Virus record (IMG/VR): IMGVR_UViG_3300023174_000167
Coordinates: 1-63,938 of that record
From: a virus
Taxonomy: Duplodnaviria > Caudoviricetes
Length of the DNA: 63,938 nt
Strand: one strand, 5' to 3'
Shown here: positions 1-15,045 of the stretch, one piece after another
Numbering within the stretch: position 1 is the stretch's first letter
How the letters are laid out: every line of letters begins with the position of its first letter
Notes under the pieces: generated by a model
Told to the model about the DNA's origin: nothing
The model's database searches: none
What the model saw: only the letters and a program-made list of their open reading frames with translations
Program-made: the position numbers and the translations under genes

Positions 1-1
1 T

Positions 2-212: not shown

Positions 213-404
213 CTATGAGCCTACAGGCTCACTATCGGTCTCCATACTCTTGTCCCACAATATTAGACACTTAATACACTGGATACCTGGATCTCTCATA
301 TACCAAGTATGCTTACATTCTTTTGCCACTGGCACACCAAATACTACCGTCTTGCATGGTTTGATGGGTTTCCCAAAATATGGGATCTTTGTGCGATAGC
401 TCAC
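213..404 (-). CDS. small Cys-containing hypothetical protein
   Basis: ORF track; lies downstream of a sigma70-like promoter at about 435-464 (-). Confidence 0.45.
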   Translation of the reverse strand: MSYRTKIPYFGKPIKPCKTVVFGVPVAKECKHTWYMRDPGIQCIKCLILWDKSMETDSEPVGS

Positions 405-740
405 ACTTTGGACATTCGTTCTTTTTCATATATCTATTGTCTCAAAAAGTTCGGGGCAAGTCAAATGGATGAATCTTCAACCTGATCTACTGCATCATCT
501 ATAGTCCTAGTAAGAACAACGATGTCTCGTAATATGCCACCTTGGTCCCAGGATGAAGGTTTGATAATTTCACACATTATTTAAGGTTTGTGGCTATGGC
601 GATGCAGTTTGAACATGGGGTTTGGTCAGGCGATCCATGTTGGCATCTTTCAATAATCTCTATAGCCTGTTGTTTGCTCATAAAACCATTATATCAAATT
701 TTGCGGGGGATTGCAAAGAAATGCATAACTACCAGTATAA

Positions 741-1076
741 CTAACTATGTTCCCTACATACAGGCATAGGTATAGTCTCAACAGGGGTAAAGGTATATCT
801 GATTTTACGACATATGTAGCATAGGTTCCATGCGTCTTTGTTGTTTGTTCTGATTTCCTGGAAATACTCTTTTTGGAGTATGCGCTTTTCATCCTTGGAT
901 AAAGACATATATCTTATATACGCCAGAGATATACGGTTAGAGCGGTTATGAGGATATATGGGATAGCGCAGAAAGCCAGAAAATCCATTATTTATCCCCT
1001 GGAATTTTACACCTAGGACATGCCTTTGTAGGGTTTGGAGTCTCATAGGATACATCAAAAATTGATCCACAATCAA
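741..1076 (-). CDS. hypothetical protein with C-terminal CxxC
   Basis: 111-aa ORF, no recognisable family. Confidence 0.5.
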   Translation of the reverse strand: MIVDQFLMYPMRLQTLQRHVLGVKFQGINNGFSGFLRYPIYPHNRSNRISLAYIRYMSLSKDEKRILQKEYFQEIRTNNKDAWNLCYICRKIRYTFTPVETIPMPVCREHS

Positions 1077-1118
1077 AGCATAATACTTTAGGCATAGGCT
1101 AATTGTAACATGAAATTA

Positions 1119-1167
1119 GGCCATATATGTAGGTTGAAATGTCTGGTTTGGTACTATATGTAGTGGT
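1119..1167. promoter_or_regulatory. tandem NrdR-box-like pair
   Basis: TATATGTAG cores at 1124 and 1155, 31 bp apart; second copy GTACTATATGTAGTGG resembles the NrdR consensus as recalled. Confidence 0.55.
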
Positions 1168-1172
1168 TTGAT

Positions 1173-1186
1173 AGCATAAAAATGCA
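1173..1186. promoter_or_regulatory. ArgR (ARG box)-like palindrome
   Basis: AGCATAAAAATGCA versus TGCATAWWWATGCA. Confidence 0.45.
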
Positions 1187-1223
1187 ATTTAAATGTTACT
1201 GATATTTTTTAGATTTACCTTGG

Positions 1224-1250
1224 AGTGGAGGAAAGTGGAGGATAGTGGGG
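1224..1250 (+). promoter_or_regulatory. MraZ-binding-like triple direct repeat
   Basis: GTGGAG-GAAA-GTGGAG-GATA-GTGGGG; GTGG at 1225, 1235, 1245 (10-bp period). Confidence 0.6.
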
Positions 1251-1289
1251 ATTTATGCACTTTAGACAGATGGGGCCGTAATGTCTAAC

Positions 1290-1810
1290 GGGCCAAACCT
1301 CCTATCACAAAACCTTTCTATTGTCAAACCTTCCAAACCTCATATCTCAATAGCGGATTATACCCCCAAACCTCCTATTTGTCAAACCTTTATAGCCCTA
1401 AAAACCCTATACAAAAACCTGCAAAATGTCCAATAAATATATAAAAAACCAGCAAAAAATATAAAAAGGTTTGGATATTTCTACAAAATCCAGCAAAAAG
1501 GTTTGAAGGTTTTATATGTACTTATACTGGGGGGATTTGGATACTCTTTCGTAATCCCCGCCTAGGAATGTATGCTTATCCTGGCAGTCACGCTGGGGCG
1601 GGGGATTTAAAATGATCTTCGTAATACCATTATAGCTATAGGTAATAGACAAACCATATAGTCTGGTTTGAAGGTTTGACGGATATAAGGTTTGGTGATA
1701 TACTTCCAGCGATTTTTTACAAACCATCGTAATGTTTTTTAGAAAAAATAGTTCAGGGGTTTCATATATGTCCTCGTAATGTCATTTGGGGAAAATAAGG
1801 TTTGTACGAT
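1290..1810. repeat. non-coding region of convergently arranged CAAACCT/AGGTTTG repeats
   Basis: CAAACCT at 1294, 1325, 1334, 1367, 1383; AGGTTTG at 1467, 1499, 1672, 1688, 1798; A-rich centre at about 1430-1466. Confidence 0.7.
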
Positions 1811-1875
1811 ATGTCCGATTTGTCTGAATGCCCGGCCCCACCCCCGCCGCAGCTTTGCGGCAAGGGGCAGAGTAA

Positions 1876-2145
1876 TTATTCTAGGCTAGATGAAGCGGCA
1901 AAAATATCATCAAGTGTTTCAAACCCTGTATCCTCAATACCCAATGACTCAATAAATAGCAACCAAGTTTCCTCAATGTAACCTTCGCCCTCAGTTGTTA
2001 TAGAAGCCATACCTTCGCTGGCTAAATGTGCAAGTGGCAAACCTAAATCGTTATACTCAATGAAATCTACAAACTCTGGGTCGCTACCATAGTTTACAAA
2101 TAGATCAGCAAGTATTTCTACCTTATTTAAAAATGTCGTTTCCAT
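1876..2145 (-). CDS. acidic hypothetical protein
   Basis: 89-aa ORF, overlaps upstream gene in operon. Confidence 0.75.
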   Translation of the reverse strand: METTFLNKVEILADLFVNYGSDPEFVDFIEYNDLGLPLAHLASEGMASITTEGEGYIEETWLLFIESLGIEDTGFETLDDIFAASSSLE

Positions 2146-2362
2146 AGTATTTTCCGATCTCTCTGTATTCTGCTACTTGTTTATTATACTCTGTTGCTTC
2201 TAATACTTCCAATGCCCTCGCATAAACGACATACGAGTTGCTGGTGGCTAGATATTTCCCAACTGCCTCTAGGTCAAGGCTATAGTCAGAAAGTAATTTG
2301 CCAATGGTTAGGGCAACCTTTTCTTCCTTGCTTGCTCGTAGGTGAAAGCCTCTAGTCATCAT
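2123..2362 (-). CDS. hypothetical protein
   Basis: ORF with GGAGAG SD and TTGCCC-N17-TAGAAT promoter just upstream. Confidence 0.75.
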   Translation of the reverse strand: MMTRGFHLRASKEEKVALTIGKLLSDYSLDLEAVGKYLATSNSYVVYARALEVLEATEYNKQVAEYREIGKYYGNDIFK

Positions 2363-2444
2363 CTCTCCATTCTATCAAAAAGTATGAGCGGGGGCAAGTC
2401 CCACCACAAGCCTGCCCCCGTCTCATTATGTGGACAAGGTGACC

Positions 2445-2795
2445 CTACCCCATCACACGCTCAGCCAAAAACGCTTGCTCAATAAATTCTGGGAATGGTG
2501 TGCTATCTACCTTTTTGTCAACTAGATCAATAATCACAGTCTCATCGTATAGTTCAGGGTTTGCTGGATTGATAGCAAATAGGCCATAACTATACTCATC
2601 CAAGATACTCTCAGACATAAGATAACTAATCATCATACGGGTACCGTAGGACGTATCATTAATATTAAGCCTTGGCGCAGCATGATTAATAGCATTAGCA
2701 ATGTCATACTGCCAAGTGGTGGCCCCCCAGTGAGAGTACAAAACCACGGCGTGGTCTGTTCCGTCCTTGAATACAAAGTTAATACGTGCTCCCAT
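2445..2795 (-). CDS. conserved phage hypothetical protein (LYSHWG motif)
   Basis: 116-aa ORF with AAGGAG SD. Confidence 0.8.
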   Translation of the reverse strand: MGARINFVFKDGTDHAVVLYSHWGATTWQYDIANAINHAAPRLNINDTSYGTRMMISYLMSESILDEYSYGLFAINPANPELYDETVIIDLVDKKVDSTPFPEFIEQAFLAERVMG

Positions 2796-2861
2796 TATTC
2801 TTGCTCCTTTAGGTCGTAGGTGTTTTCTTCAATTGTATCAAATAAAGAGGGCTGGGTCCAA

Positions 2862-3035
2862 TTACTCATCGCAGCCACAGCATTCAACGCAGATCTGCTC
2901 ATCGTCCTTGTAGCAGTTAGGACACATGTACTCTGACATATTCATCTCAGGGTCAAGGCACCATTCACAGATAGCAACTGATAGTTCGGCAAACGTATAT
3001 TCGCTTAGATGTTTCTCTAATCTATTAGTTTTCAT
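2862..3035 (-). CDS. small Cys-rich (Zn-binding-like) protein
   Basis: CEWC, CPNC, CVECC motifs; start moved to MKTNRLE. Confidence 0.65.
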   Translation of the reverse strand: MKTNRLEKHLSEYTFAELSVAICEWCLDPEMNMSEYMCPNCYKDDEQICVECCGCDE

Positions 3036-3366
3036 CTTCGTCCACCTCATAGATAATTTCCTTATCTGTCATCCAATCACGGATGTGGTCATATAGGCCC
3101 TCTGCCCCATACTCTAAAGAGAATCCATTCTTATCTGCATCTGTCCAGAACATCTCCCATACGTCCTCAATATCTTCGGTTACGCAGTACTCTTCTTCCT
3201 GCCCCTCCTGAATGCTTTTGTATAGATCCCTAGCAACATCCCAAGCATATACCCAAACCAAGGGTAGACCTACAGGAAGTTTACTAATCTTCTCAATGAT
3301 ATCTTCAATCTCAGTGTAGGTGTCAAGCATACGTGTACGTTCTTGTAGATCCATATCACTCTTCAT
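3025..3366 (-). CDS. acidic hypothetical protein
   Basis: ORF; start moved to MKSDMD, preceded by GGAG. Confidence 0.75.
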   Translation of the reverse strand: MKSDMDLQERTRMLDTYTEIEDIIEKISKLPVGLPLVWVYAWDVARDLYKSIQEGQEEEYCVTEDIEDVWEMFWTDADKNGFSLEYGAEGLYDHIRDWMTDKEIIYEVDEDEN

Positions 3367-3691
3367 TGAGTTCTCCCTCAAAGTCAATAACAACCATACC
3401 AACACGGCCATCATCATTTAACTTAACATACACAGGATAAACACCGTCTCCGTATCCTGTAGAGAAAGCAACTGCTTGGGCATAGCCAAGTTCTCCGTAG
3501 CCTTCCTTAAGGGTTACACCGCATGCACCAAGATAACTATACTTGCCTGCGTTTTCCTCGTGGTCAAATGGTGTACCTTCGGGCCAATTCTCAAACTCGT
3601 TTAGATAGCAGGGGTCGCCTACCATTGCTTGCCCAGAGTCAACTGAAAAAGACCCTGCGTAAGTTAATCCTGAGAGTAATGTGGTGGTCAT
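3356..3691 (-). CDS. DUF4241-like protein
   Basis: Motifs VDSGQAMVGDPCY and FSTGYGDGVYPVY. Confidence 0.75.
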   Translation of the reverse strand: MTTTLLSGLTYAGSFSVDSGQAMVGDPCYLNEFENWPEGTPFDHEENAGKYSYLGACGVTLKEGYGELGYAQAVAFSTGYGDGVYPVYVKLNDDGRVGMVVIDFEGELNEE

Positions 3692-4119
3692 TGCTTTGCT
3701 CCTTCGTTATTGTCTAGTTCCTCAAGTGTAGCGCAAGCGGCGCATTTTTGCAACTCCTGATATAAATCACTCATTAATTCAGCAGACTCATCTTTCCATA
3801 CAGCCTCACAGTTCGGGCATTCAAAGCCACCCTCACTGACTGTTACTTGAACATCAACGCCATTTGAAAAGGGGACCTCAGTAATAAAATAACCAATCCT
3901 ATTTACAAAGCCCCAACCATTCCAAATATAAGTACCATCATCATCGCCATCACCGTACATCCAGATATGATTATCATGAGCCTTCTTGACAAACTCATAC
4001 TCCTCTCCATATGTCTCAAACATATATCCATTAAATGATGAATCAGGGTTTATATTATTAGGGATTGGTTTGTAGGTATCAAACCATGTATCAAAGTCTA
4101 GTTCAAGGAAAGCGCTCAT
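3688..4119 (-). CDS. hypothetical protein (FETYGEE...VNRIGYFITE), C-terminal CxxC pairs
   Basis: 143-aa ORF coupled to neighbours. Confidence 0.8.
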   Translation of the reverse strand: MSAFLELDFDTWFDTYKPIPNNINPDSSFNGYMFETYGEEYEFVKKAHDNHIWMYGDGDDDGTYIWNGWGFVNRIGYFITEVPFSNGVDVQVTVSEGGFECPNCEAVWKDESAELMSDLYQELQKCAACATLEELDNNEGAKQ

Positions 4120-4287
4120 AGTTTGCCCTCAATATTCTTAGAGCCACAAGGTTCGCACTCACCTTCTGTAACATCTTCCCATTGGTCAGTCTCTACATCT
4201 TCTAGAGTACCGTCAGCATTGTAGATACCAAGTTTGTATCCAGTCTCGGTATACCAGAAGCGCTCTGTCTGGCCACAGTCTAAACAT

Positions 4288-4542
4288 TTAGGCATTTTGG
4301 GTCTCCTCTATACGTTTGCGGTCTATAGATAAATTATAGGTCATGGTGTATATATTTGTCAATGCCTGCATATATCCTTCTAATCTATCAGTCTCGTCCT
4401 GCTCGTGAGTCTCGTGTATAAGTTCTTCTGTTTCCAACATCTCAACTTTTAGGTATCCGTGGAGCACATCAATAAGCGGTATAGATGTGTCCTCTAATGG
4501 TTTAGTTAGATAGTCGGGGATGAAAGGATACTTCTCACTCAC
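4288..4542 (-). CDS. hypothetical protein
   Basis: 84-aa ORF in operon. Confidence 0.7.
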   Translation of the reverse strand: MSEKYPFIPDYLTKPLEDTSIPLIDVLHGYLKVEMLETEELIHETHEQDETDRLEGYMQALTNIYTMTYNLSIDRKRIEETQNA

Positions 4543-4780
4543 TGATTGCCCACTCTCCTTGTTCGCTTTGTTCCATTATATCTAGAGCCACTGACAAGAT
4601 GTGCTGGGTTGCCTTAAGTTCCCCAAGATTAATAATGTCCTCTATCTCCATTTGGCGGTATTCATCTGTATCAAAATCACCCTCATATGTATTAAAGAAA
4701 TTCTTAATCTCTTCTTTATCTTGTTCAAGACTAATTAGGTGTAACTTCATATATTCAATAAATCTACTTGATCTAGTCAT
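4535..4780 (-). CDS. hypothetical protein
   Basis: 81-aa ORF in operon. Confidence 0.7.
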   Translation of the reverse strand: MTRSSRFIEYMKLHLISLEQDKEEIKNFFNTYEGDFDTDEYRQMEIEDIINLGELKATQHILSVALDIMEQSEQGEWAISE

Positions 4781-5177
4781 TTAATGTTTCCATATCTTGT
4801 TCTTGATAGCATTTTTTACAAATCAGGGTAGACTCAAAGAAAGTTACATATACATTACAACATATACTCATTAGTCAAAATACCCTTCTGCCCATAAACC
4901 GTCAAGAAAGTCTAATGCTTTATTAATTGCGGCTACATCTTCACCACTTGCCTCAATACCACAAAGACCGCTAATGATATCTTGAAACTGTTCTTTAGTA
5001 TAACCTAGCATTACTCACCTTCCTCAAATTCGTATCCAATAATATCAATGTGGTCAGGTTCTGTACCCTGAATTTCTTCAAGCATTAGGGTTTGGGCTTC
5101 AACCAAGGTATCAGCCTCAATCTCCCTATTCCAATAGTTATTTACTCTCTCATAGTAATCAATACTAAACTTAGGCA

Positions 5178-5339
5178 TTATTCCCCCCAATATCTAATGA
5201 TAGTATTCATAGTCATGCATAGGTGGCAGTCACAGTCTCCATTGTTCATATTTTCTATGAAATCAAAGTGTGAATAGTTGTCCTCATAGATAGCCTCTAC
5301 GAGTTCTGAAATTGTGTAGGGTTTATATTGTGTGTTCAT
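5178..5339 (-). CDS. small hypothetical protein (CDCHLC), probably leaderless
   Basis: ATG 6 nt after a TACAAT -10 element. Confidence 0.65.
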   Translation of the reverse strand: MNTQYKPYTISELVEAIYEDNYSHFDFIENMNNGDCDCHLCMTMNTIIRYWGE

Positions 5340-5761
5340 AATGCTATTGTAGCGGGAGCCACTGACATTTTGGACTGCCATAGGGAACAGTTATTATCTA
5401 GTCTGTCACCAAATACACGAATATAGTCAGCGATATCTGCCACGGTATCAGTCAAGCATTCCTTAACAGTATCTATAGATATAAACACACGTCCATTCCA
5501 TAGGCCCATTTGACCAATGTTTGTAGGTACTTCTAAACATCCATAGGTGTCTTGCTCCCAGCCAACACCTTCTGAGCATACAAGAGCATACTTAGGATCT
5601 CCGTAAACGTTCTTTTCTTCTAGTTCAATGAATAGTAGGTTATCTACTGTGCATTTAGAGAAATCATTGCTATATTGCAATGCATAAATACCGTTTGCAA
5701 TTTCTGCAAGTTTCTTGCCATCAACAATTTTTCCTTCATAGCCTTTTATTCTATCTCGCAT
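5336..5761 (-). CDS. hypothetical protein
   Basis: ORF; start moved to MRDRIKG (AAAGGA SD, promoter at about 5793-5821). Confidence 0.75.
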   Translation of the reverse strand: MRDRIKGYEGKIVDGKKLAEIANGIYALQYSNDFSKCTVDNLLFIELEEKNVYGDPKYALVCSEGVGWEQDTYGCLEVPTNIGQMGLWNGRVFISIDTVKECLTDTVADIADYIRVFGDRLDNNCSLWQSKMSVAPATIAL

Positions 5762-5880
5762 GGTGTATCCTTTGGTTAGTAGGTATATATTAATTTTACA
5801 CGGTTTCGGGAAAAATAGCAAGTCCTCTTAATAAGGTTTTTATGATTAATAGAATAATTAAAACCCCCGGCCCCGCCTTG

Positions 5881-5954
5881 CGATCCGTACGAGACTTGAA
5901 CTCGTGACCTCTACCGTGACAGGGTAGCGCTCTAACCAACTGAGCTAACGGACC
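5881..5954 (-). tRNA. trnD: tRNA-Asp(GTC)
   Basis: GGTCCGTTAGCTCAGTTGGTTAGAGCGCTACCCTGTCACGGTAGAGGTCACGAGTTCAAGTCTCGTACGGATCG forms a full cloverleaf with GTC anticodon; followed by CAA, not CCA. Confidence 0.95.
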
Positions 5955-5960
5955 AAGTGG

Positions 5961-5990
5961 TGAGCAGTTTTGATTCATGCTCAGGAATTT
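5961..5990 (-). ncRNA. pseudoknot motif copy A
   Basis: ATTC-C-TGAGCA-T-GAAT-CAAAAC-TGCTCA between the DUF932 stop and the tRNA. Confidence 0.7.
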
Positions 5991-6002
5991 TCTTTTGTTT
6001 GC

Positions 6003-7019
6003 TTATGCGATCTGCATAACGTCTTGTACAACTTTTAGCAAACGATTTTTTTCTGCGTTAATAGCAGGATCAAATCCGCTTGCACTTGCGAGAATAGACT
6101 CGTTATTAGAACCACGAGCAGAACGGTACCAATCAAGGCGCTCAGTTAGTGCATTGAAAGCACCCCAAGCATTGCCAGCGATCATACCATTAAATTCTCC
6201 AGTATAAATGTCGTTGATAACATCTACCTTGTTTTCCCACTTCTTGATTGAACCCTTAGCATCTTTTTCTGGCTTAGGATAAGCAGCGAGAATGATATCG
6301 TTAAATGACTTAGCGCTAACTTCTTTTTCAATCATAGCCTTAGCCATGATATCAAACTGATCCATGTAAGCATTAGCAAGACCAAGAGTCTCACGAGCAA
6401 TTTGGACTTTGCCATTAGCGGTCTGAGTGTGGCGAATTTTGAAAGATTGTTTTACGCCGTTCTTCTTTTTGATACGTCCTAACGCAAGGTTAAGAGTATT
6501 AGCGCAGACAACACGAACTGGGGTTATGCTTGCTTGAATAGCAATAGATCCATCGTGCGATGTGTTGATAAGCAAATAAGTTTTAACCTTATCTGCAACA
6601 CCGCTAGGGTCTAGGATTGTTTCACGCTCAAGAGCAAGAGCGCCAAATACTACACGCCCACCTTTAATTGAGCCAGCGGTTTCCCAACGACCCCCGCCGT
6701 CAAGAATGTTATCGCCAAATGAGAATAAATCTTCATTTTGCAATACATGATAGCGTTCACCAACTACACCAAGAACATCTGTCTGAGTGTTGTCGGTAGG
6801 ATTAGTACGTACGACATATTGGTATTCTTTGTCGCTTGTTAAGTGTGCAGGGATTGGCATATCTTCAAGACGAACGTTCCAACTATTAAGGCTTGCAGCC
6901 TCTAGCATTTCTGCAGTTGTTTTTTCTTCTGTGAATACGGTACCCAATCCATGCCAAGCAGGTTCACGAAAAGACGCAAAAGACGTTTTCCCGTTTTGTA
7001 TTTCTAGGTCATGTGCCAT
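6003..7019 (-). CDS. DUF932 / TIGR03299-like phage protein
   Basis: Motifs REPAWHGLG, WETAGSIKGG, SHDGS, TPVRVVCANTL, AWGAFNALTE. Confidence 0.9.
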   Translation of the reverse strand: MAHDLEIQNGKTSFASFREPAWHGLGTVFTEEKTTAEMLEAASLNSWNVRLEDMPIPAHLTSDKEYQYVVRTNPTDNTQTDVLGVVGERYHVLQNEDLFSFGDNILDGGGRWETAGSIKGGRVVFGALALERETILDPSGVADKVKTYLLINTSHDGSIAIQASITPVRVVCANTLNLALGRIKKKNGVKQSFKIRHTQTANGKVQIARETLGLANAYMDQFDIMAKAMIEKEVSAKSFNDIILAAYPKPEKDAKGSIKKWENKVDVINDIYTGEFNGMIAGNAWGAFNALTERLDWYRSARGSNNESILASASGFDPAINAEKNRLLKVVQDVMQIA

Positions 7020-7200
7020 GAGTTTTTCCTTTTCTGTTTTGTTGTTAATCTAATCATACACCCATCTAGCCAAAAAAGTCAAATAGGCTACGTAAACATG
7101 GGGCAAATCGGACATTTTTTCAGGTGATCTTAAACACACATCTTAAACTTGACAAGCATGGTAGGATGTGCCCGGCCCCCAAAACCTGCGGGAATTAAAA

Positions 7201-7231
7201 GTGATCAGTTTCAGTTCATGATCAGGAACTC
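7201..7231 (-). ncRNA. pseudoknot motif copy B
   Basis: AGTTC-C-TGATCA-T-GAACT-GAAAC-TGATCA. Confidence 0.7.
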
Positions 7232-7286
7232 TCACTACCATGTATATGGAACCAATATCCATGTGTATGGTTCTTGTGAAACTTGT

Positions 7287-7315
7287 TGAGCAGTTTTGCG
7301 ACTTACTCAGGTCGT
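7287..7315 (-). ncRNA. pseudoknot motif copy C
   Basis: CGAC-C-TGAGTA-A-GTCG-CAAAAC-TGCTCA. Confidence 0.7.
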
Positions 7316-7352
7316 TAGGGTTCAGGACTTTAAGTTGCCCCCCTAAGTTTAG

Positions 7353-7772
7353 TTAGAGATACTGTGCGATTTGTCGCATAGTTGAGGCATTTACTGTTTC
7401 CTCATCTGTCATCTTTAAGATGTTGAGGGCATTTTTGATTTCCTCTTTCATAGTGCGATATTCGTGGTTATGTAGAACCTCAAAATCACGCTCTGGCTCT
7501 GTTGGCAGTTCTTTTTCATTGGCTACTACAATATCATAGTCAATGTTTAATTTGTTATTGTATGCACGATATGAGGTACGGAAGTTTTCAGCCTTCTTGA
7601 TATTTGCAATAGCAAAATCCTGAAGTGCCTTGTTGTACTTTTCTCTTGCCTTATCATACTTTGCTTCGTTGGCTTCTTGGCTTGACCAATCTTTTTCTAG
7701 TTTTTCTAGACGGGCTTCTAGTGCCTTGATTACCTTTGGTGTTGCTACTTTTACTGTAATTGCTCTTGACAT
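7353..7772 (-). CDS. coiled-coil hypothetical protein
   Basis: 139-aa ORF with AAAAGGA SD and own promoter. Confidence 0.85.
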   Translation of the reverse strand: MSRAITVKVATPKVIKALEARLEKLEKDWSSQEANEAKYDKAREKYNKALQDFAIANIKKAENFRTSYRAYNNKLNIDYDIVVANEKELPTEPERDFEVLHNHEYRTMKEEIKNALNILKMTDEETVNASTMRQIAQYL

Positions 7773-7830
7773 ATATTTCCTTTTCTTTGATGGTTTATTT
7801 ATATTGTAGTGGTTGGGTCTGACATTTAAG

Positions 7831-7860
7831 TGAGCAGTTTTATATCATGCTCAGGATATT
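7831..7860 (-). ncRNA. pseudoknot motif copy D
   Basis: ATATC-C-TGAGCA-T-GATAT-AAAAC-TGCTCA. Confidence 0.7.
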
Positions 7861-7871
7861 TTATTAGGCTA

Positions 7872-8033
7872 TTATGCCTTCCAAGTTGTCCAGCGTGTGT
7901 TGCCATTTACATCTAACTTAACACGAACTGTGTTCTTGTCTGTTGGCTTGATTTCCAAGATTTGACCTGTGACCTTTGACTTCTGTGTTGTAAAGAGATC
8001 GCCGACCTTGTATGTTGCTGTTGCTACTGTCAT
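7872..8033 (-). CDS. small basic SH3/KOW-like hypothetical protein
   Basis: Start moved to MTVATATYKVGD (AAAAGGA SD). Confidence 0.75.
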   Translation of the reverse strand: MTVATATYKVGDLFTTQKSKVTGQILEIKPTDKNTVRVKLDVNGNTRWTTWKA

Positions 8034-8232
8034 TTTTTTTCCTTTTCTATTAGGTGTTGTTTTCTTTATATTTCTAGTATATCTGAGATTTCCCAGAAAT
8101 ACAATTCCATTTCCTAAAAATCTCACTATTTGAGACATTTTCCTTGTGATATAGGTCACTCATGCCCCAGCCCTGAGATTATGAACACGAGCAGGATTAT
8201 AGTTAGTATAGTTAGTGATAGCATTATTCCCC

Positions 8233-8955
8233 CTACTTTTTGGTTGCACTAAATACTATATCAGACTTCTCATAAATACACAACTTGCAGGTAGCGCAGG
8301 CAGACCCATTGCTTGAGATAAGTGGGATAGCCTTTTTATTCTCAGGACACTTAGCCCCTACCTTACCTGTTAATTCTTTCATGTCTGCTTGCCCTATAGC
8401 AAAATTTTTGGCAAGGTATGCAAGGGATATCCCATGTTCATTCTTAAGGTTAATCCCAATAGACTTATTCTCGCTATCTGTAGAATAGTATAGTGAGAGA
8501 TTAGGGATATCCTTTAGGATTACCGCTGCAGACTTGACTCTGGTATATACCCAGAATTGAATGGTAGGATTGTTTTTGATTACTTGCTTCCAAGCATGAG
8601 CATATTGATCGCTAAAAAAATCTCCGTCCCAGTGAATGCGGAATAGTAAAGGTGCTTCCTTCTTCTCGCAATCTTCAACAAACTCATCTATCATTTCAGA
8701 CAATAGCATGAGCATGGTTAGACCGTCTGCATTGCGTAGTAATTCCCAGTTATGGAGTAAATTCTTTTTTACTGTTGGGAATATCTTTTCCAATTTGCCA
8801 GCGTAGCAAACAGTTTCGCAGATAGACGTAGCGCCAGGGCATGAATAGGCTTTTCCTGCAGGTAGTCCGAATGTGTTGGCGATACTTGCTTGTTTTCCAT
8901 TAGGTGTGACGGCATTAGTTACTTTCCGATCTTTGCTTCTGAGTAATTTAGTCAT
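8233..8955 (-). CDS. GP88-like protein (mycobacteriophage gene 88 family, Cys-rich)
   Basis: FGLPAG...CPGATSICETVCYA, FRIHWDGDF, FWVYTR, C-terminal CxxCxxC. Confidence 0.8.
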   Translation of the reverse strand: MTKLLRSKDRKVTNAVTPNGKQASIANTFGLPAGKAYSCPGATSICETVCYAGKLEKIFPTVKKNLLHNWELLRNADGLTMLMLLSEMIDEFVEDCEKKEAPLLFRIHWDGDFFSDQYAHAWKQVIKNNPTIQFWVYTRVKSAAVILKDIPNLSLYYSTDSENKSIGINLKNEHGISLAYLAKNFAIGQADMKELTGKVGAKCPENKKAIPLISSNGSACATCKLCIYEKSDIVFSATKK

Positions 8956-9562
8956 GGTGGTTTACTCGCTTTCTTTCTTTAATTGTAGCAGCAGGGACTG
9001 ACTTTTCTTTCTGTTGTATTTCTTTTTGCTAGGCACCGATGAGGCAGCATTACTTCGGCGCAGCTCTAAGAGTCGCCTTAATTCCTCTGGTGTTTTTTTC
9101 ATATAATAATCTTAGCAAACTTTGGGCAAAAATACAACTCATCTTAATTAGTACAATTCGGACAATTTGCCCGGCCTTGCTAATCAGTATTAAACATTTT
9201 TAACAACTCATCAATTTGTTCATTAGTTAAATGATCAAGTTGAATTGCTTTTTCAAAACCAAATAAATCTTTTTCCATTTTACAAATCTCCCATCTCAGC
9301 ATCAGCCATGCGTGACCACATATAAAATTCAACGGGATCATGATTAGAATAAAAAACGGGATCAGCAGATGAATATCCTTTAGCACAAATAGTGCAGATA
9401 GAATAGTTAGTGCAGTAGCAGGAGTTAATATCGTTCATTAGACGACCTTTCGTTTTGGATTATTCTAATCCTAGCAGACTCAACTGACAAATGCAAGATT
9501 TGGGGGGGTTTTAATAGGGTACGTAATTGTGATCTTAGTCACACAGCCCGGCCCCGCTCCAG

Positions 9563-9802
9563 CTATTCTGTTTCTATATAAACATATAGATCAACATATG
9601 TATCGTGACTTATTGTTGCTACGTCCCGCTCACCATATGCATCGGCATATTCAATAAAATAGTTATCGCCTGTCGCATCAGAGTCAATAGATATTACCTG
9701 AATGATATCTCCATCATATCCAATTAAATCATCAACCATTAAAGAACCAGGTGTTAACTTATCTGCCCAAACTAGATCCATGCTGTTTATTGTAGCAGTC
9801 AT
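9563..9802 (-). CDS. acidic hypothetical protein
   Basis: 79-aa ORF with GGAGG SD. Confidence 0.7.
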   Translation of the reverse strand: MTATINSMDLVWADKLTPGSLMVDDLIGYDGDIIQVISIDSDATGDNYFIEYADAYGERDVATISHDTYVDLYVYIETE

Positions 9803-9926
9803 TTTATAGCCTCCACAATTACATCATCATAGCCCATTTCAATCCATTCCTGCGCCCAGTACTCTGCATCTCGTCTAGTTAGATAGTTAGAATTAATTTC
9901 ACTACCGCCAACCCAAAGTGTATACA

Positions 9927-10211
9927 TTAGTACTCTTCCTCTGGAAGCCAGAAAGATAGGTGGTGTTGTTCTACAATAGCCCAAGCAGGTGCAGTAGTTT
10001 TATTTTTATACAATATCTGAAAGTCGCCAACCATAGGCATAGCAATTTCACGATCATAGTCCTCTTCATAGTAAGCGTCAATCGCTTCTATGCAAGGCGT
10101 TACCATTTCTGCGGGGACAGGTGGATAGTGATTACCCTTAAGGTGATAAAGTATCTGAGTCTCTAAGTCTAATACTGTTTCCTGTATTCCTAACGCTGTT
10201 ACTGATCCCAT
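9927..10211 (-). CDS. hypothetical protein (HLKGNHYPPVP)
   Basis: 94-aa ORF with SD. Confidence 0.8.
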   Translation of the reverse strand: MGSVTALGIQETVLDLETQILYHLKGNHYPPVPAEMVTPCIEAIDAYYEEDYDREIAMPMVGDFQILYKNKTTAPAWAIVEQHHLSFWLPEEEY

Positions 10212-10686
10212 TACATTTTCCCTTCAATAAAGTCTAGTATTTCATTATAGGTGGTAATTTCTTCTTCTTCATCTGCTACTGAGCGCATGTCTATGATTAC
10301 ATCTATTAGATTATTTAGGTAGTGGTAGTTCATTGTCCCCGTCCAATCCCATTAGTTCCATTTCTTCAGCGTAGTCTAACGCTTCCGATACTTCGGTATT
10401 TATGAATAGCATTTAGTATTCCCCTTCTTCTATGTCTGGAGTCAAGTCTAGTGCAATAACGCACTCTTGGCAAACTGGTCGTTCAAAGCGATAGTCAAAC
10501 TTATCTTCATCTAAGTTTTCTAGGCAGTTCTCACAATAAGTTAATGTATCCATTACTTAACTTCCCAATCTTCTATTACTCCGTCAATAGCGTCCTGTAT
10601 GTCTGTATTAAACACATCTAACTCATCTGCGTTTAGTTCTCTAATAAAATCATTAGTGGGGTTAGAATACCAAGTGATAGGGTTTT

Positions 10687-10908
10687 TCATTTAACAGCCA
10701 CCTCTCCGTTACGATAGAAAGTCTTAGTGTACATCTTACCAATAGGGTCAGACAAGTTATAGGTAGCGTATTCTTTAGCATCTCCATAGTCCTTGCACAA
10801 TTCCCAAACTCTTACGGCTTCTAGCATATCGCTAAAACGGTAAGTATCGTGTAGTTTTCCGTCATAGGAAATAGTTAGTGAGTAAAAGTATTCCATTAGT
10901 CGTTCCAA
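10687..10908 (-). CDS. hypothetical protein
   Basis: ORF in operon of tiny genes. Confidence 0.7.
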   Translation of the reverse strand: MERLMEYFYSLTISYDGKLHDTYRFSDMLEAVRVWELCKDYGDAKEYATYNLSDPIGKMYTKTFYRNGEVAVK

Positions 10909-11305
10909 TCTAAGGTAAGGTTTAGTTCTGAGTCTAACACATCTGCAAAGTCATGGTCAAGTTGGCAAGACCAGCAACGCAATTCATTTACATCTACTTC
11001 ATTTTCGTTACAATCTAAGCAAGTATAAATATCCATTAGTAGTTTTCCCCCATATTCTTTTCTGCTTCCCACTCTTGACGGTGTTCTGCACACATAGTCG
11101 CAGGGCGAGATGATATTAAGTCTATCCCATATTCCTGAGCATAGCAAATATTGCAAGCCAGCCCTTGATCTGCAAGTACTTCCATTAAATTACCCATTTA
11201 GGCATTTCCTTTCTGATTAACTAAGTTAATCCTATCGTACTCCACCGACATTTTTGGGATCTTGGGGGGGGTTTTGCGGTGTGATCTTAACCACACTTAA
11301 TAGCC

Positions 11306-11325
11306 TGTGGATAACCTGTGGACGA
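11306..11325. promoter_or_regulatory. DnaA box plus degenerate second box
   Basis: TGTGGATAA-CC-TGTGGACGA; the first is the reverse complement of TTATCCACA. Confidence 0.65.
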
Positions 11326-11355
11326 CACGCCCGGCTCAGCTTTTAGTTGAAACTT

Positions 11356-11385
11356 CAAGCAGTTTTAAAACTTGCTTAGGTTTTT
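11356..11385 (-). ncRNA. pseudoknot motif copy E
   Basis: AAAAC-C-TAAGCA-A-GTTTT-AAAAC-TGCTTG, 5 nt after the stop of 11390..11569. Confidence 0.65.
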
Positions 11386-11389
11386 TTAT

Positions 11390-11569
11390 TTAGTAAGTGC
11401 TTATCATGCAAGCCTCAAAAAATTTATCTGCTTTGAAGTTTACATTATCCTCTGCAAAAAAAGCAGAGAAGTCATCAACTAAATCGTGATAAGTAAATTC
11501 ATCACCGATTAAATCTTTATAAGATGAAAGAATTTCTGCAACTGCTACATAGTCTTTGCGAGTCATCAT
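11390..11569 (-). CDS. small hypothetical protein (MMTRKDYVAVAEIL...KFFEAC), not in ORF track
   Basis: 59-aa ORF translated by hand, coupled to upstream gene. Confidence 0.8.
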   Translation of the reverse strand: MMTRKDYVAVAEILSSYKDLIGDEFTYHDLVDDFSAFFAEDNVNFKADKFFEACMISTY

Positions 11570-11776
11570 TTATTCTGCCACCTTTAGAATTGCATAAGAA
11601 CCGTTTTCGTTAATTACATCTATTGCAGGCTGAATCATCGGCGCAAGCATTTCTTTTAGCATTGATTCAAGCATATCAATTTGATCAATTTCTGAAAGTG
11701 TAAAGAAGCGTTGCGCTACTGGGTGAGTCTCGTCAAACTCAGTTACGAATTTGAGCGTGTGTTCTACTTTTTTCAT
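11570..11776 (-). CDS. hypothetical protein
   Basis: 68-aa ORF in operon. Confidence 0.75.
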   Translation of the reverse strand: MKKVEHTLKFVTEFDETHPVAQRFFTLSEIDQIDMLESMLKEMLAPMIQPAIDVINENGSYAILKVAE

Positions 11777-11958
11777 TATAGTGTTACCTTTCCACGAAGT
11801 GTGCCTGAAACTCCCAATGAGTCACAGGAAATTTTTACTGATACGCCAACTGGCAGAGTGTTAGGGTAAGTTGAAATAAATTGTGCAACTGCACCCTTTG
11901 ACGGTAGTGAGATTACTTTAACAGTTCCGTTAAAGGTTTCTAGGTTTAATTTATACAT
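11776..11958 (-). CDS. hypothetical protein, paralogue of 14718..14891
   Basis: VKISCDSLGVSGTLRG versus VKITCDLLGIDGYLQG. Confidence 0.8.
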   Translation of the reverse strand: MYKLNLETFNGTVKVISLPSKGAVAQFISTYPNTLPVGVSVKISCDSLGVSGTLRGKVTL

Positions 11959-11979
11959 AAGTTAGTTTCCTACTTTCTT

Positions 11980-12204
11980 TTAGTTGTTTACTTTTACTGC
12001 TACGGTAGCATAAAAATCTGCTTTAGGTAAATCACCTTTTACAAAATCAGGGCGCACTTTGATAGTGTAAGCCTCATAGTTTTCACCGTACCAAATCTCA
12101 GGGCGAGACTCTGCCCATACGATATTGCCCTCAGTATTACGAGAATCAGAGCGATAGCGTTTTCCGTCAAGCAGATCAACGATAGAGTATTTTTTAGTTG
12201 CCAT
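11980..12204 (-). CDS. hypothetical protein
   Basis: Start MATKKYS with AAAGGA SD and promoter. Confidence 0.75.
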   Translation of the reverse strand: MATKKYSIVDLLDGKRYRSDSRNTEGNIVWAESRPEIWYGENYEAYTIKVRPDFVKGDLPKADFYATVAVKVNN

Positions 12205-12547
12205 TAGTAGCACTTCCTTTTCTTTTCTTTATATAACTATTTTACCAAACATACCTGATAAATACAAATCCAAATTCGGACATATCAGACAATTTAAATG
12301 TGAATTGCGTCACATCTTTTTGCTATTTATTTAATTGTATAGTAGCAATACTAGCAAACATAAACCAAAAAGTCAACACGACACGCCGTAAATCAGGGGA
12401 ATTTTTTATGTGATCTTAACCACACGACACGCCCGACAGCGCCGGGCCGCCTTTCACTCTTTTGAAAATAAATAAATAGAAAATAAAAAACTAATTAGTG
12501 AAAAAAATAAAAGTGCATTACCACTTACAAAAAAAGTTTGATAAAAG

Positions 12548-12748
12548 TTATTCATTCTCATCCTCCATTTTCATTAGACCATCTTCATAGTCCAGCAACC
12601 CTTGCTGATACATTACGGGATCGCAATTAAAAAGAATTTCTGAAGCGGTAAAAGTAGAGTAACCAATTTTAACGCTAGGGTAACACTCATCAAGTAGAGC
12701 GTCATAGCCTTCCTTCATTTCTATTTCTTTTTCTAATTCTGTTTTCAT
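12548..12748 (-). CDS. hypothetical protein (LDECYP...EILFNCDP)
   Basis: 66-aa ORF with SD. Confidence 0.75.
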   Translation of the reverse strand: MKTELEKEIEMKEGYDALLDECYPSVKIGYSTFTASEILFNCDPVMYQQGLLDYEDGLMKMEDENE

Positions 12749-12905
12749 TAGTTAGTTTCCTTTTCCTGAAAAATTTTATAGATTTCATTTTGTTTTTTAT
12801 CTGAGAGATTAGCCCAGATGTAGCCTAGCAAATAGTGTGAGCCAGTAATTTCGTTATTACCTTTTACATTATTTGATAGTGCAACTAGTTTTGATAGATC
12901 AGCCA

Positions 12906-13061
12906 TTATTTAAACTCCTTTTTTAGTTTTTTTGCAACGATAGCATCTGGAGCGCAATACAATTTGCATTGGCAATTCTTTACTCCATTACGATTATTTA
13001 ACATTAAGTGGCGATTATATTGCTGAATATAACCTAAGTTATGAGTAAGCATATTAGTCAT
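12906..13061 (-). CDS. small protein, paralogue of 13469..13615
   Basis: MTNMLTHNLGYIQQYNRHLMLNNRNGVKNCQCKLYC...; hand-translated. Confidence 0.75.
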   Translation of the reverse strand: MTNMLTHNLGYIQQYNRHLMLNNRNGVKNCQCKLYCAPDAIVAKKLKKEFK

Positions 13062-13220
13062 TTATTTAACCTCTACTTCTAGGATAGTCCAACCGCTAGT
13101 AACGGCTGAGTCTAGCATATCATTTATTGCTAACTCACTTTTCATTGGAACTTTAGTAGTGATAGTCTCTACATTTCCGTAGCGACCAATTCTAGTCATT
13201 TTATATTTTAGTGAAAACAT
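13062..13220 (-). CDS. small protein, paralogue of 14267..14452
   Basis: Start MFSLKYK after AGAAAGG; SELAINDMLDSAVTSGWTILE. Confidence 0.75.
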   Translation of the reverse strand: MFSLKYKMTRIGRYGNVETITTKVPMKSELAINDMLDSAVTSGWTILEVEVK

Positions 13221-13420
13221 TTTGTTTTCCTTTCTTTGTTGATAACCTTTATCAACTTTCCTTATACTAGAAAGTATAACAGGGGGGTACGACATCTTGA
13301 GGGGTATAAAACGGTCAATTCGGACATTTGGTACTGTGATCTAGCCCACATTTTTTAGAATAGGGGAATTAAGGCTCTGAGCAGGGCTTTTGTAGAGGGG
13401 GGTAAATGTGATACGTATCA

Positions 13421-13440
13421 TGTGGATAACCTGTGGATAA
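13421..13440. promoter_or_regulatory. two perfect tandem DnaA boxes
   Basis: TGTGGATAA-CC-TGTGGATAA. Confidence 0.75.
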
Positions 13441-13468
13441 ACCCGGAAAAAGTTAGTTGAAAGATCAA

Positions 13469-13615
13469 CTACTTTTTTATTTTATCTATATATTTTGCAT
13501 CACTTGCACAATACAACTTGCATTGGCAATTAGTTAAACCGATACGGTTATTCCATAAGATATGGCGGTTATACTGTTGTATATAGCCTAAGTTATCAGT
13601 GAGTATGTTAGTCAT
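13469..13615 (-). CDS. small protein, paralogue of 12906..13061
   Basis: MTNILTDNLGYIQQYNRHILWNNRIGLTNCQCKLYC...; AGAAAGG SD. Confidence 0.75.
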   Translation of the reverse strand: MTNILTDNLGYIQQYNRHILWNNRIGLTNCQCKLYCASDAKYIDKIKK

Positions 13616-13630
13616 TTATTATCCTTTCTA

Positions 13631-13753
13631 TTACTTACACATTACGCAGATATCGCCTGCGATTAAACCTTGTTTGCAGATATCGCAAGGCTTGTAGCCC
13701 ATTAACTCTGCAAAGACTTTGCTTATTTCTTGTTCAAATATTCTGTTTGTCAT
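13631..13753 (-). CDS. 40-aa CxxC-x9-CxxC protein, first gene of leftward arm
   Basis: MTNRIFEQEISKVFAELMGYKPCDICKQGLIAGDICVMCK; AGAAAGG SD. Confidence 0.8.
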   Translation of the reverse strand: MTNRIFEQEISKVFAELMGYKPCDICKQGLIAGDICVMCK

Positions 13754-14029
13754 TTTATTAACCTTTCTAGTTTAAGGACTTTCCTTAACTTTCTAATACT
13801 GTAAGGATACATGACCAAGCCCCAAAAGTCAAGCCCAAACACGGCGTGTCTAGTGTGATTTACCCCACATGGCCCGGGTGCTCTCAGGAAACTCTCAGGA
13901 TAGATGTGGCAAGGATCACAAAAATAAATTCCGACACGCCCGAGAATAGGGGTCAAAATGTCAGTGGGGGGTGTTATACTTTCCATATAGAAAGTTAGAG
14001 AAGGTCTCTAAATAAGAAAGGGTCAAAAA

Positions 14030-14152
14030 ATGACTAACAGAATATACGAACAAGAAGTCTCTCCAGTATTTGCAGAGCATATGGGATATGTCTCATGTGA
14101 GAAGTGTGGGGGATACCCTATCGCTTCTAGCCCATGCGTTATGTGTAAGTGA
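14030..14152 (+). CDS. 40-aa CxxC-x9-CxxC protein, first gene of rightward arm
   Basis: MTNRIYEQEVSPVFAEHMGYVSCEKCGGYPIASSPCVMCK; AGAAAGG SD. Confidence 0.8.
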   Translation: MTNRIYEQEVSPVFAEHMGYVSCEKCGGYPIASSPCVMCK

Positions 14153-14266
14153 TCTAAATCACACACAGCCTACGGCGTGTCGCCTTGTATTTTAGCGGGG
14201 GATCTGCTAAGATTACATCTATAAAATTAAATAAGAATTAAAACTACTAAAGAAAGGTGGTCTAAA

Positions 14267-14452
14267 ATGACTACACTAAATAAAACACAATATCAACTAA
14301 CTTGGGCAGGAGAAATGCCTAAGTATAACTACACTTCAGGATCTTTCCTAGGTGGTCTATTCAATTCCGAAAAGGCTGCTAACGATTACCTTGACGAAAT
14401 GGTTTCTAAAGGTTGGATAGTGCTAGAGGCTAGCATTAAGGAGATTAACTAA
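14267..14452 (+). CDS. small protein, paralogue of 13062..13220
   Basis: SEKAANDYLDEMVSKGWIVLE; AGAAAGG SD. Confidence 0.8.
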   Translation: MTTLNKTQYQLTWAGEMPKYNYTSGSFLGGLFNSEKAANDYLDEMVSKGWIVLEASIKEIN

Positions 14453-14570
14453 GATGATACACCATGAACTTTTTCTATGCGATAACTGCGATACTCTCGC
14501 CATGATAACCTATACAGGTACAACAATTACAGTTAACCAATGTCTATGCGTTTCTAAGGAGAATAACTAA

Positions 14571-14714
14571 ATGACGATACACTACTCAATCTGGCAAGGC
14601 TCATCGCTAATAGGTGTTCGCACCGCTACTAGTGTTAAAGAAATACTAGACACTATGAAAGAACTAAAGCAACTTGGTATGTTCACACACAACATCTTTA
14701 AAATTGAGGGGTAA
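14571..14714 (+). CDS. small hypothetical protein
   Basis: MTIHYSIWQGSS...; AAGGAG SD; hand-translated. Confidence 0.7.
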   Translation: MTIHYSIWQGSSLIGVRTATSVKEILDTMKELKQLGMFTHNIFKIEG

Positions 14715-14717
14715 CAA

Positions 14718-14891
14718 ATGAAAGTAACACTAACATCTATGCAAGGTAACACAAAAGACATTAACCTCATGAGCAAGAAAGAGGTTTATGATTTCATTAA
14801 GTTGTATAAATTAACATTACTAAAAAACCAGAGAGTTAAGATTACTTGTGATCTGCTTGGCATTGACGGATACTTGCAGGGTGTCTCCTAG
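14718..14891 (+). CDS. small protein, paralogue of 11776..11958
   Basis: MKVTLTSMQGNTKDINL...VKITCDLLGIDGYLQGVS; GAGG SD. Confidence 0.75.
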   Translation: MKVTLTSMQGNTKDINLMSKKEVYDFIKLYKLTLLKNQRVKITCDLLGIDGYLQGVS

Positions 14892-15045
14892 AAATAGGAG
14901 ATCCCCCTAGATACGTGCACACTATTTTTTATGGTTATTTTATTTTAAATCACGTATCATACATCTGATAAAAATATTCAGATTTTGTGAAAAGTGAATT
15001 TTTATAATTTTTCAGATTTGTGCTATACTGAATTAAAGGGGTATC

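Follow-up and report, generated by a model that had tools for sequence, protein, structure and literature searches.

Which proteins, if any, read the short recurrent motifs that fill the intergenic spacers in the small-gene block of an uncultured lake phage? The question was raised by positions 1085-14190 of IMG/VR record IMGVR_UViG_3300023174_000167, the whole of which (63,938 bp, GC ~38%, CheckV completeness 59%) constitutes the window analysed here and is an incomplete contig of an uncultured phage of ~110 kb. An initial annotation had presented this DNA as an array of look-alikes of the operators of many different host regulators (CRP/GlxR, DnaA, NrdR, ArgR, MraZ, WhiA and IclR/MarR types), which might serve either as decoys or to couple early promoters to host state. 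All listed motifs were indeed found where they had been reported; judging from their sequence and order, they are not a multi-regulator array but parts of one repeated modular promoter cassette. The explanation that we favour, with a probability of roughly 0.55, is that these early promoters would be coupled to the state of the host through a host protein of the CRP family, bound to the most conspicuous part of the cassette, the palindrome TGTGA-N6-TCACA.

Positions 1085-14190 comprise a leftward block of small genes plus its control DNA. From ~13,753 down to ~1,900 all genes lie on the minus strand, clustered a few at a time with 80-330 bp of spacer in between, and most of their products are shorter than 100 amino acids (aa) and unannotated. 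Since the genes are on the minus strand, motifs quoted in gene direction are the reverse complements of the window sequence. From this layout we infer that the block is early. What lies at 13754-14029 is not a spacer within an operon but control DNA from which transcription diverges, flanked by a pair of 40-aa paralogues; tail-fibre-like genes lie rightward of it.

The palindrome and the promoter cassette

The initial annotation counted about 11 TGTGA-N6-TCACA sites, which corresponds to nine with at most one mismatch (two exact, seven with one mismatch) plus those at 7123 and 13407, with two mismatches. The nine begin at 8145, 9528 (exact), 11280, 12299 (exact), 12409, 13335, 13854, 13905 and 14148, compared with 0.52 +/- 0.66 sites (largest 3) in 200 dinucleotide shuffles of 1085-14190. 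Ten such sites occurred in the window, none of them in the 49.7 kb of 14191-63938. A position weight matrix built from relatives led to the same result, in line with the earlier proposal to scan against shuffled DNA and the rest of the window: the palindrome was enriched and confined to 7123-14163, where all ten best scores of the window fell, eight of them above the top of 20 shuffles (15.25). The sites and cassettes are the following (matrix scores in brackets):

14148-14163: palindrome, one mismatch (19.2), centre about -64.5
14185-14213: rightward promoter of the preceding site, -35 TTGTAT 14185-14190, -10 TAAGAT 14208-14213
13905-13920: palindrome, distal in the divergent region (14.3, below the shuffle maximum of 15.25)
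13854-13869: palindrome (20.4), centre about -64.5 from the leftward promoter
13804-13832, minus: first leftward promoter, TTGACT-N17-TATCCT, preceding the 40-aa gene 13631-13753
13421-13440, minus: tandem DnaA-box-like words, TTATCCACAGGTTATCCACA in gene direction, 11-bp period, directly upstream of the weak palindrome at 13407
13335-13350: palindrome (19.4), no strict -35/-10 pair found downstream
12409-12424: palindrome, TGTGGTTAAGATCACA in gene direction (18.8), centre about -75.5, abutted upstream by a GC box at 12426-12433
12348-12387, minus: GC box GGCGTGTCG, 2 nt, promoter TTGACT-N17-TAGTAT
12299-12314: palindrome, exact (17.3), centre about -74.5 from TTGTAT 12262-12267 / TAAAAT 12239-12244
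11280-11331, minus: cassette with GC box 11324-11331, TCCACAGG and TTATCCACAGG 11306-11314, palindrome TGTGGTTAAGATCACA 11280-11295 and C-run (20.7)
11306, 13421 and 13432: DnaA-box-like word TGTGGATAA
9528-9543: palindrome, exact (20.4), centre about -74.5 from TTGCAT 9491-9496 / TAGGAT 9468-9473
8121-8160, minus: palindrome AGTGACCTATATCACA 8145-8160 (centre -83.5), then TCTCA-N5-TGAGA 8121-8135, upstream of TTGTAT 8099-8104 / TATACT 8076-8081
7123-7138: degenerate palindrome, two mismatches (12.2), upstream of TTGACT-N18-TATGAT 7053-7082 and the DUF932 gene

Relatives were found through the 240-aa GP88-family protein of the block, of which IMG/VR holds at least 317 (encoded in 317 of 325 candidate stretches). 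Eighty loci with 10-kb flanks and 75-85% protein identity were kept, 68 of them non-duplicates; unless the window is named, the counts below refer to these relatives. All 80 loci carried palindromes, 3 to 15 each and 768 in 1.32 Mb. The logo of 646 distinct contexts was symmetric, aTGTGAT-n-TA-n-ATCACA, with 12 informative positions conserved at 57-100% and uninformative flanks. Within complete relatives the palindromes were gathered in one stretch of ~10 kb (8 of 8 in one genome, 15 of 18 in another). The conservation check in related phages, also proposed initially, came out in favour of four motif classes, which were kept across the 68 loci.

The consensus of the palindrome equals that of E. 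coli CRP. Its resemblance to CRP/GlxR sites was moreover exact at the consensus level, since the logo of the relatives is TGTGANNTANNTCACA, the consensus given for GlxR (PMC4254451); a CRP of the actual host, if it has one, may prefer another site. The resemblance extends to the TA in the centre and to the T/A of positions 6 and 11. A Dam/GATC link of the palindromes was considered, GATC being present in several window sites, but was rejected as position 6 is unconserved in relatives.

In gene direction, the spacers displayed a recurrent order: a terminator or hairpin, optionally GTTATCCACAGG once or in tandem, the GC box ACGGCGTGTCG, the palindrome, an A-run plus C-run, in many cases another GC box, and finally a sigma-70/sigma-A-type pair made up of TTGACT or TTGTAT, N17 and TAnnnT. 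Distances between the parts were likewise constrained. The GC box was centred at -42, 2 nt from the -35 hexamer, in 38 of 150 contexts, and 193 of 234 GC boxes lay within 60 bp of a palindrome, at few preferred offsets. The TCTCA-N5-TGAGA palindrome belonged to one orthologous promoter; in 67 of 79 contexts its centre fell between -58 and -60.

Geometry was measured to the first TTG-N3-N16-18-TAnnnT downstream, with the -10 hexamer set at -12 to -7 and the transcription start thereby assumed. Such a promoter pair was found downstream in 458 of 651 site contexts. Site centres peaked at -53.5 (57 contexts), -64.5 (32), -74.5 (62), -83.5 to -85.5 (123) and -102.5 (17), with a minor peak at -69.5 (24). 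With one modal value per sequence cluster (115 of 189 clusters), the Rayleigh R reached 0.61 for a period of 10 bp and 0.60 for one of 10.5 bp; for 13 bp it was 0.10. Some orthologous clusters switched between -64.5 and -74.5 (16 vs 10), or between -83.5 and -102.5; jumps of 10 bp within orthologues are what selection for helical phase predicts. A generic sigma-70 and terminator scan was not enriched over shuffles (promoters 41 vs 40.3, terminators 6 vs 8.8), and the sigma-70 part was used only for cross-checking individual hexamers.

The other parts of the cassette were conserved as well. The word GACACGCC had six copies in the window, all in 11324-14181 (0.41 expected; no shuffle out of 100 gave 6). 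It forms the core of the 11-nt GC box, which also came first in an unbiased 9-mer enrichment (154 copies vs 0.4 expected); that enrichment added the classes GACATTACGA and AATGTCAG. Across the 68 loci, GGCGTGTC occurred in 262 copies (65 loci), ATGTCCGA in 147, TCTCA-N5-TGAGA in 80 (63 loci) and AGGTTTG in 840; GGCCGGGC, with only 14 copies, was not conserved. The GTCGGGC core of the GC box and ATGTCCGAATTG are common to the window phage and Samisti12, a distantly related Streptomyces phage of cluster BE1 (Stanwilliamsviridae by its record), so that these cassette parts are old in the lineage. Samisti12 also displays a like layout over its first ~10 kb, with leftward small genes and spacers of 100-190 bp.

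The DnaA-like boxes were borderline in the window alone, where the three copies of TGTGGATAA compare with 0.99 expected and 5 of 100 shuffles reach 3. Conservation of the DnaA-box word TTATCCACA, which we take to be the DnaA box consensus, was on the contrary clear: 66 of 68 loci carried it, with 319 copies altogether and in either orientation, and its extended consensus in relatives is GTTATCCACAGG. Close to a palindrome (within 60 bp, mostly 16-32 bp upstream) were 172 of the 319, and the three boxes of the window are likewise promoter-associated. The remaining 147 lay farther than 60 bp from any palindrome; many of these are taken to be the boxes beside the repeat block described below.

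Other look-alikes and elements of the leftward block

The remaining resemblances of the initial annotation concern the lower end of the region, two palindromes farther up and the GC box:

1085-1880, minus, in gene direction: CAAACCT repeats, AT-rich DNA and a perfect TTGACA-N17-TATAAT (1357-1385) overlapped by AGGTTTG repeats; then five more AGGTTTG, five ATTACG(A/G) words, CTCCAC repeats and a conserved A-rich stretch
1124 and 1155: TATATGTAG pair, 31 bp apart
1225-1250: GTGGRG three times, exact 10-bp period
13448-13478, minus: terminator-like hairpin with AGTTGAAAGATCAACT, A-run before and U-run after, following the stop codon of gene 13469-13615

Three of them were abandoned. NrdR boxes are two 16-bp palindromes about 31-32 bp apart upstream of nrd genes. 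The 31-bp spacing of the TATATGTAG pair fits this arrangement; the word occurred in 18 copies in the 68 loci, never as a conserved pair, and the 16-nt NrdR consensus, with up to three mismatches allowed, missed both copies and found one site elsewhere in the window (2.27 expected). Nor did the DNA upstream of the ribonucleotide reductase gene of the phage show an NrdR-like box. ARG boxes are tandem 18-bp palindromes; the supposed ArgR site, AGCATAAAAATGCA at 1173, is a single imperfect palindrome of 14 nt with no copy in the 68 loci. The NrdR and ArgR look-alikes, at 1124-1186, occupy the sole part of the 1085-1880 block where nucleotide conservation stops, and most relatives carry a tandem TGTGGATAA pair at that position. 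As for the IclR/MarR-type palindrome at 13455, AGTTGAAAGATCAACT belongs to the terminator-like hairpin (-10.9 kcal/mol, z -6.24, none of 200 shuffles as stable) and was likewise absent from the 68 loci. The palindrome at 8121 is conserved in 63 of the 68 loci, and nothing ties it to the IclR/MarR families.

Two other look-alikes, of MraZ and WhiA sites, belong to conserved units and may or may not be what they resemble. The MraZ operator consists of at least three direct GTGG(G/T)-type repeats with a period of 10-11 bp upstream of mraZ and the dcw cluster. The GTGGRG triple (one in the window, 0.00 expected) was conserved in 27 of 38 relatives reaching this spot; it sits inside the 1085-1880 block, not at a dcw promoter, and binding sites of a replication initiator would explain it equally well. 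The WhiA word GACAC is contained in a longer conserved unit, the 11-mer ACGGCGTGTCG. WhiA sites are described as asymmetric GACAC words upstream of the -35 hexamer, on either strand and at variable spacing (PMC10243135), and the GC box may be too close to the -35 hexamer for WhiA.

The 1085-1880 block itself is a 0.8-kb stretch without a convincing gene. Its core (~1189-1702) was conserved at 70-81% nucleotide identity among the 40 matches listed for relatives, and its CAAACCT and AGGTTTG repeats form an inverted arrangement around AT-rich DNA. A 71-aa open reading frame (ORF) at 1512-1727 (minus) consists mostly of CAAACC repeats; relatives carry a small ORF similarly placed, and it was not trusted as a gene. 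Tandem DnaA boxes lay next to the block in 24 of 38 relatives reaching the spot, with a further box in the spacer of the next promoter; the block of the window contains no perfect DnaA box and has other sequence where relatives carry the tandem pair. The initial statement that no oriC-like context was nearby is thus wrong for the DnaA boxes of relatives, many of which adjoin short repeats and AT-rich DNA. By its composition the block resembles an iteron-type origin or the injection-stop region of T5.

Similar DNA may lie at the genome end of a distant relative. The left-terminal 900 bp of Samisti12 contain four (C)ATTTACGA words and ATGTCCGAATTGA and are read, on this sequence likeness, as the counterpart of the block. 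The DUF932 gene matches two places per record in Streptomyces phages, at 1.2-2.4 kb, and the second place is taken to be the other copy of a terminal repeat; terminal repeats of ~11 kb are described for BE1 Streptomyces phages (PMC5764925). Two complete relatives of the window phage displayed end overlaps of ~120 bp in their assembled contigs.

Further elements of the leftward block are listed here:

13631-13753, minus, and 14030-14152, plus: 40-aa Cys-rich (CxxC...CxxC) paralogues, 63% identical (25 of 40 residues)
8233-8955: gene of the 240-aa GP88-family protein
6003-7019, minus: DUF932 gene
5880-5954, minus: tRNA-Asp (GTC), inside the leftward block
5960-5991, 7201-7232, 7286-7317, 7830-7861 and 11355-11386, minus: five copies of a hairpin, CC-TGAGCA-N7-AAAC-TGCTCA
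~9005, 7826 and 5369, minus (within 5369-9005): second-class promoter-like sites AA(A/T)GTCAG-N10-TAnAAT, without -35 hexamer

A 101-nt inverted repeat spans the starts of the two Cys-rich paralogues, and a 154-nt direct repeat, 74% identical, covers the paralogous ~50-aa genes 12906-13061 and 13469-13615 (repeat copies 12913-13066 and 13467-13620), which implies that gene-plus-spacer units of the block were duplicated.

The hairpin word AAACTGCTCA was strand-specific in relatives (167 forward vs 3 reverse), and full 6/6 pairing was seen in 152 distinct contexts on the gene strand vs 2 on the opposite one. Its variants comprised the G-U pairing TGAGTA/TGCTCA (35) and the compensatory pairs TAAGCA/TGCTTA (7) and TGAACA/TGTTCA (4). 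One copy stands directly before tRNA-Asp and another before a second-class promoter. The hairpin had no Rfam match, tRNA-Asp being the only Rfam hit over 1-15000; it looks like an RNA element, such as a processing site or a protein-binding hairpin.

Second-class sites had the consensus AAATGTCAG-N10-TAnAAT in relatives (262 contexts), with an A-rich stretch where a -35 hexamer would be expected; within the leftward block they keep to its downstream half. This arrangement is reminiscent of the middle promoters of T4, in which an activator box takes the place of the -35 hexamer. As a genome-wide middle or late signal, AATGTCAG-N10-TAnAAT was rejected: in the window it does not occur outside the block, and in two complete relatives it is rare.

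The spacers in 1-10016 of Samisti12 contained a GC-rich terminator, the near-palindrome GTGTCGGGCCCGGACA, the word AAATCGGACAT and a promoter with -10 TAGACT, and a run of GGTACAT/GGGCATA repeats occupied 9635-10016, upstream of its first leftward gene. No description of these spacer motifs was found in the literature searched.

Candidate binders of the palindrome

Who could bind these sites depends first on the host. In a nucleotide search with 1000-14200 and 30000-50000, no cultured phage matched, and cultured relatives were recognized at the protein level only: the portal protein and the DUF932 protein (338 aa) are 45% and 54% identical, respectively, to those of ~130-kb Streptomyces phages. 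A WhiB gene was present in all four relatives of 109-114 kb rated 100% complete by CheckV, and the occurrence of Wbl proteins is reported to be limited to Actinobacteria (PMC6282962). On the strength of these genes and identities, the host is an actinobacterium. Two side surveys concern hosts. In a sample of 401 genomes, the strict palindrome TGTGATNTANATCACA occurred in 34 (at most five per genome) vs 12 for the reversed control, and HTH_Crp_2 was present in three of five small genomes; the sample contains loci of 21-25% GC and therefore could not be treated as Actinomycetota, and nothing was inferred from either count. Homologues of the phage reductase were also found in eight loci on contigs of metagenome-assembled genomes (81-95% identity, one 46%) titled Chitinophagaceae, Flavobacterium, Bifidobacterium, Gammaproteobacteria, Luteolibacter, Bacteroidota, Roseivirgaceae and Beijerinckiaceae, which look like phage contigs mis-binned into unrelated genomes.

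In the favoured explanation, the palindrome would be the operator of a dimeric regulator of the CRP family. The binder would most likely be the cAMP receptor protein of the host (GlxR or Crp type), because the phages carry no CRP-family gene: PF00027 (cNMP_binding) and PF13545 (HTH_Crp_2) were absent from the window and four complete relatives, with positive Corynebacterium and E. coli controls. Host CRP would modulate RNA polymerase at some ten promoters from about -53.5, -64.5, -74.5 and -84.5, one helical turn apart, and the first wave of phage transcription would follow the cAMP or metabolic state of the host. The earlier suggestion that early promoters are coupled to host state is thereby retained for the CRP-like sites, by virtue of their phased placement upstream of promoters, and plausible for the DnaA-like boxes, and given up for NrdR, ArgR and IclR/MarR.

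Several points weigh against host CRP. The phase is some 3-4 bp off the class I positions of E. coli CRP (-61.5, -71.5 and -82.5), and it includes -53.5, which is not a classical activating position. No strict promoter was found downstream in 193 of the 651 site contexts. Many promoters possess a near-consensus -35 hexamer (TTGACT) and, as near-consensus promoters need no activator, the binder could repress or only fine-tune. The clusters behind the phasing are not independent lineages, and the p-values are nominal and overstate the case. Streptomyces has a Crp; Samisti12, with the same layout, has no palindrome at up to one mismatch in 14 kb, and displays the GC-rich palindrome GTGTCGGGCCCGGACA at the same place. 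Finally, a small phage protein without a Pfam family could be the binder.

This last point leads to the next best explanation, somewhat unlikely but serious, in which the palindromes are operators of a dimeric regulator encoded by the phage itself (a small early or virion protein) that switches early promoters off or on, comparable to phi29 p4 or to the stoperator repressors of cluster A mycobacteriophages. On this view, the resemblance of the palindrome to CRP sites would reflect convergence on the common TGTGA/TCACA half-site. Such a binder would account well for sites that occur almost only in the phage's own early block and for near-consensus core promoters that require no host activator. 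It would also suit the lineage-specific parts common with Samisti12 (ATGTCCGAATTG, ATTACGA/TTTACGA and the GTCGGGC core), which imply that the cassette evolves with the phage, and the other palindrome at the same place in Samisti12, as if each lineage had one protein of its own. Yet 30 window proteins yielded no helix-turn-helix or other DNA-binding Pfam family, and the four complete relatives no CRP-type domain, in searches that tiny novel binders would escape. Moreover, repressors usually overlap the core promoter, whereas these sites lie 40-90 bp upstream in helical phase, and the GlxR match, with its central TA and T/A at 6 and 11, exceeds a shared half-site.

A bolder version of the host CRP explanation, which we consider doubtful, would make the cassette a three-input sensor on ~100 bp, reading metabolism through CRP, replication through DnaA and division through a WhiA/WhiB-type complex at the GC box (with the phage's own WhiB), and also draining these proteins at high copy. 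How strongly a lytic actinophage starts would then depend on three master regulators of its host.

Titration as the principal function, the other proposal of the initial annotation, appears improbable. Replicated arrays would here act as decoys of host CRP, DnaA and others, derepressing or derailing host programmes. Each genome has about ten CRP-like sites close to the consensus plus several DnaA-like boxes, which replication would multiply, titration being compatible with promoter control, and for T5 it has been proposed that the DnaA boxes bind host DnaA (Davison, bioRxiv 10.1101/866236). Decoys, however, need no fixed geometry, yet helical phase to the -35 and -10 hexamers was kept across 10-bp insertions or deletions in orthologues, and they belong to a cassette whose other boxes stand at set distances from them; because this geometry relative to promoters is fixed, the sites would act in cis. 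Three of the proposed targets (NrdR, ArgR and IclR/MarR) are in addition left without a credible site. That the repeats have no function, being either relics of spacer duplication or words that arose by chance in AT-rich DNA, is hardly credible: the generic sigma-70 scan was unenriched (41 vs 40.3), some listed motifs are single unconserved words and gene paralogues in the block imply that spacers were duplicated along with them, but conservation of the palindrome, 57-100% at its 12 informative positions, does not extend to its flanks, enrichments range from 10-fold to more than 300-fold over Markov or shuffle expectation, and helical phase is maintained.

Known systems and significance

Promoters controlled by CRP/GlxR, as in C. 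glutamicum, share with the phage the same symmetric 16-bp TGTGA-N2-TA-N2-TCACA, likewise set upstream of sigma-70-type promoters and positioned in one-turn steps along a single face of the helix. The phage differs by its ~ten sites in 7 kb and by the extra conserved GC box between site and -35 hexamer. This GC box recalls the WhiA/WhiB promoters of Streptomyces, which have GACAC upstream of the -35 hexamer in common with it (PMC10243135), and the phage lineage encodes WhiB; the phage unit is longer (11 nt, ACGGCGTGTCG) and ends 2 nt from the -35 hexamer, where WhiB sits in the published complex.

A lytic phage with sites of a host global regulator in its early control DNA is nothing new in kind. 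Spo0A boxes tie early transcription and replication of phi29 and Nf to host physiology (PMC2731898). They likewise address a global regulator of the host in a lytic phage, though another regulator in another host phylum, and binding is experimental there and deduced from sequence here. The likeness to T1 is partial: host CRP acts directly on its pir, dam and recE promoters and couples the decision to sugar supply, but CRP represses there and governs a lysogeny-lysis switch, and no array of consensus sites appears in the passages describing it (PMC6737242). What is new in this large family of lake actinophages is the scale, the phasing and the composite cassette, none of which was found described for actinophages in the literature searched.

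As to the 1085-1880 block, the injection-stop (iss) region of T5-like phages is described as a large untranslated stretch in the terminal repeat, next to the genes expressed first, and as composed of repeats, inverted repeats, palindromes and a conserved set of eight DnaA boxes (bioRxiv 10.1101/866236). Such a region lies at the end of the DNA that is transferred first. The block and its counterparts in relatives are similar in content; the window block differs by having no perfect DnaA box, and the T5 mechanism is itself a proposal. Iteron-type origins possess direct or inverted repeats around AT-rich DNA with adjacent DnaA boxes. The block shares with them AGGTTTG/CAAACCT repeats around AT-rich DNA, a strong promoter reading through and, in most relatives, the DnaA boxes; no initiator gene was identified next to 1085-1880.

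Blocks of the 1085-1880 type are candidate origins or injection-stop elements of a phage family with long terminal repeats, and the cassette supplies ready-made parts, promoters and operators that are strongly conserved, for use in actinobacterial genetics. The phages concerned are common in lake metagenomes, with at least 317 relatives in IMG/VR and their DNA in lake and freshwater runs, no RNA run being among those listed for the region, and would have hard-to-culture actinobacteria as hosts. If host CRP is indeed the binder, a large lytic phage wires its whole early regulon to one global regulator of its host. Gating by host cAMP-CRP would then make infection success dependent on host nutrition and provide a testable link between lysis and carbon supply in lakes.

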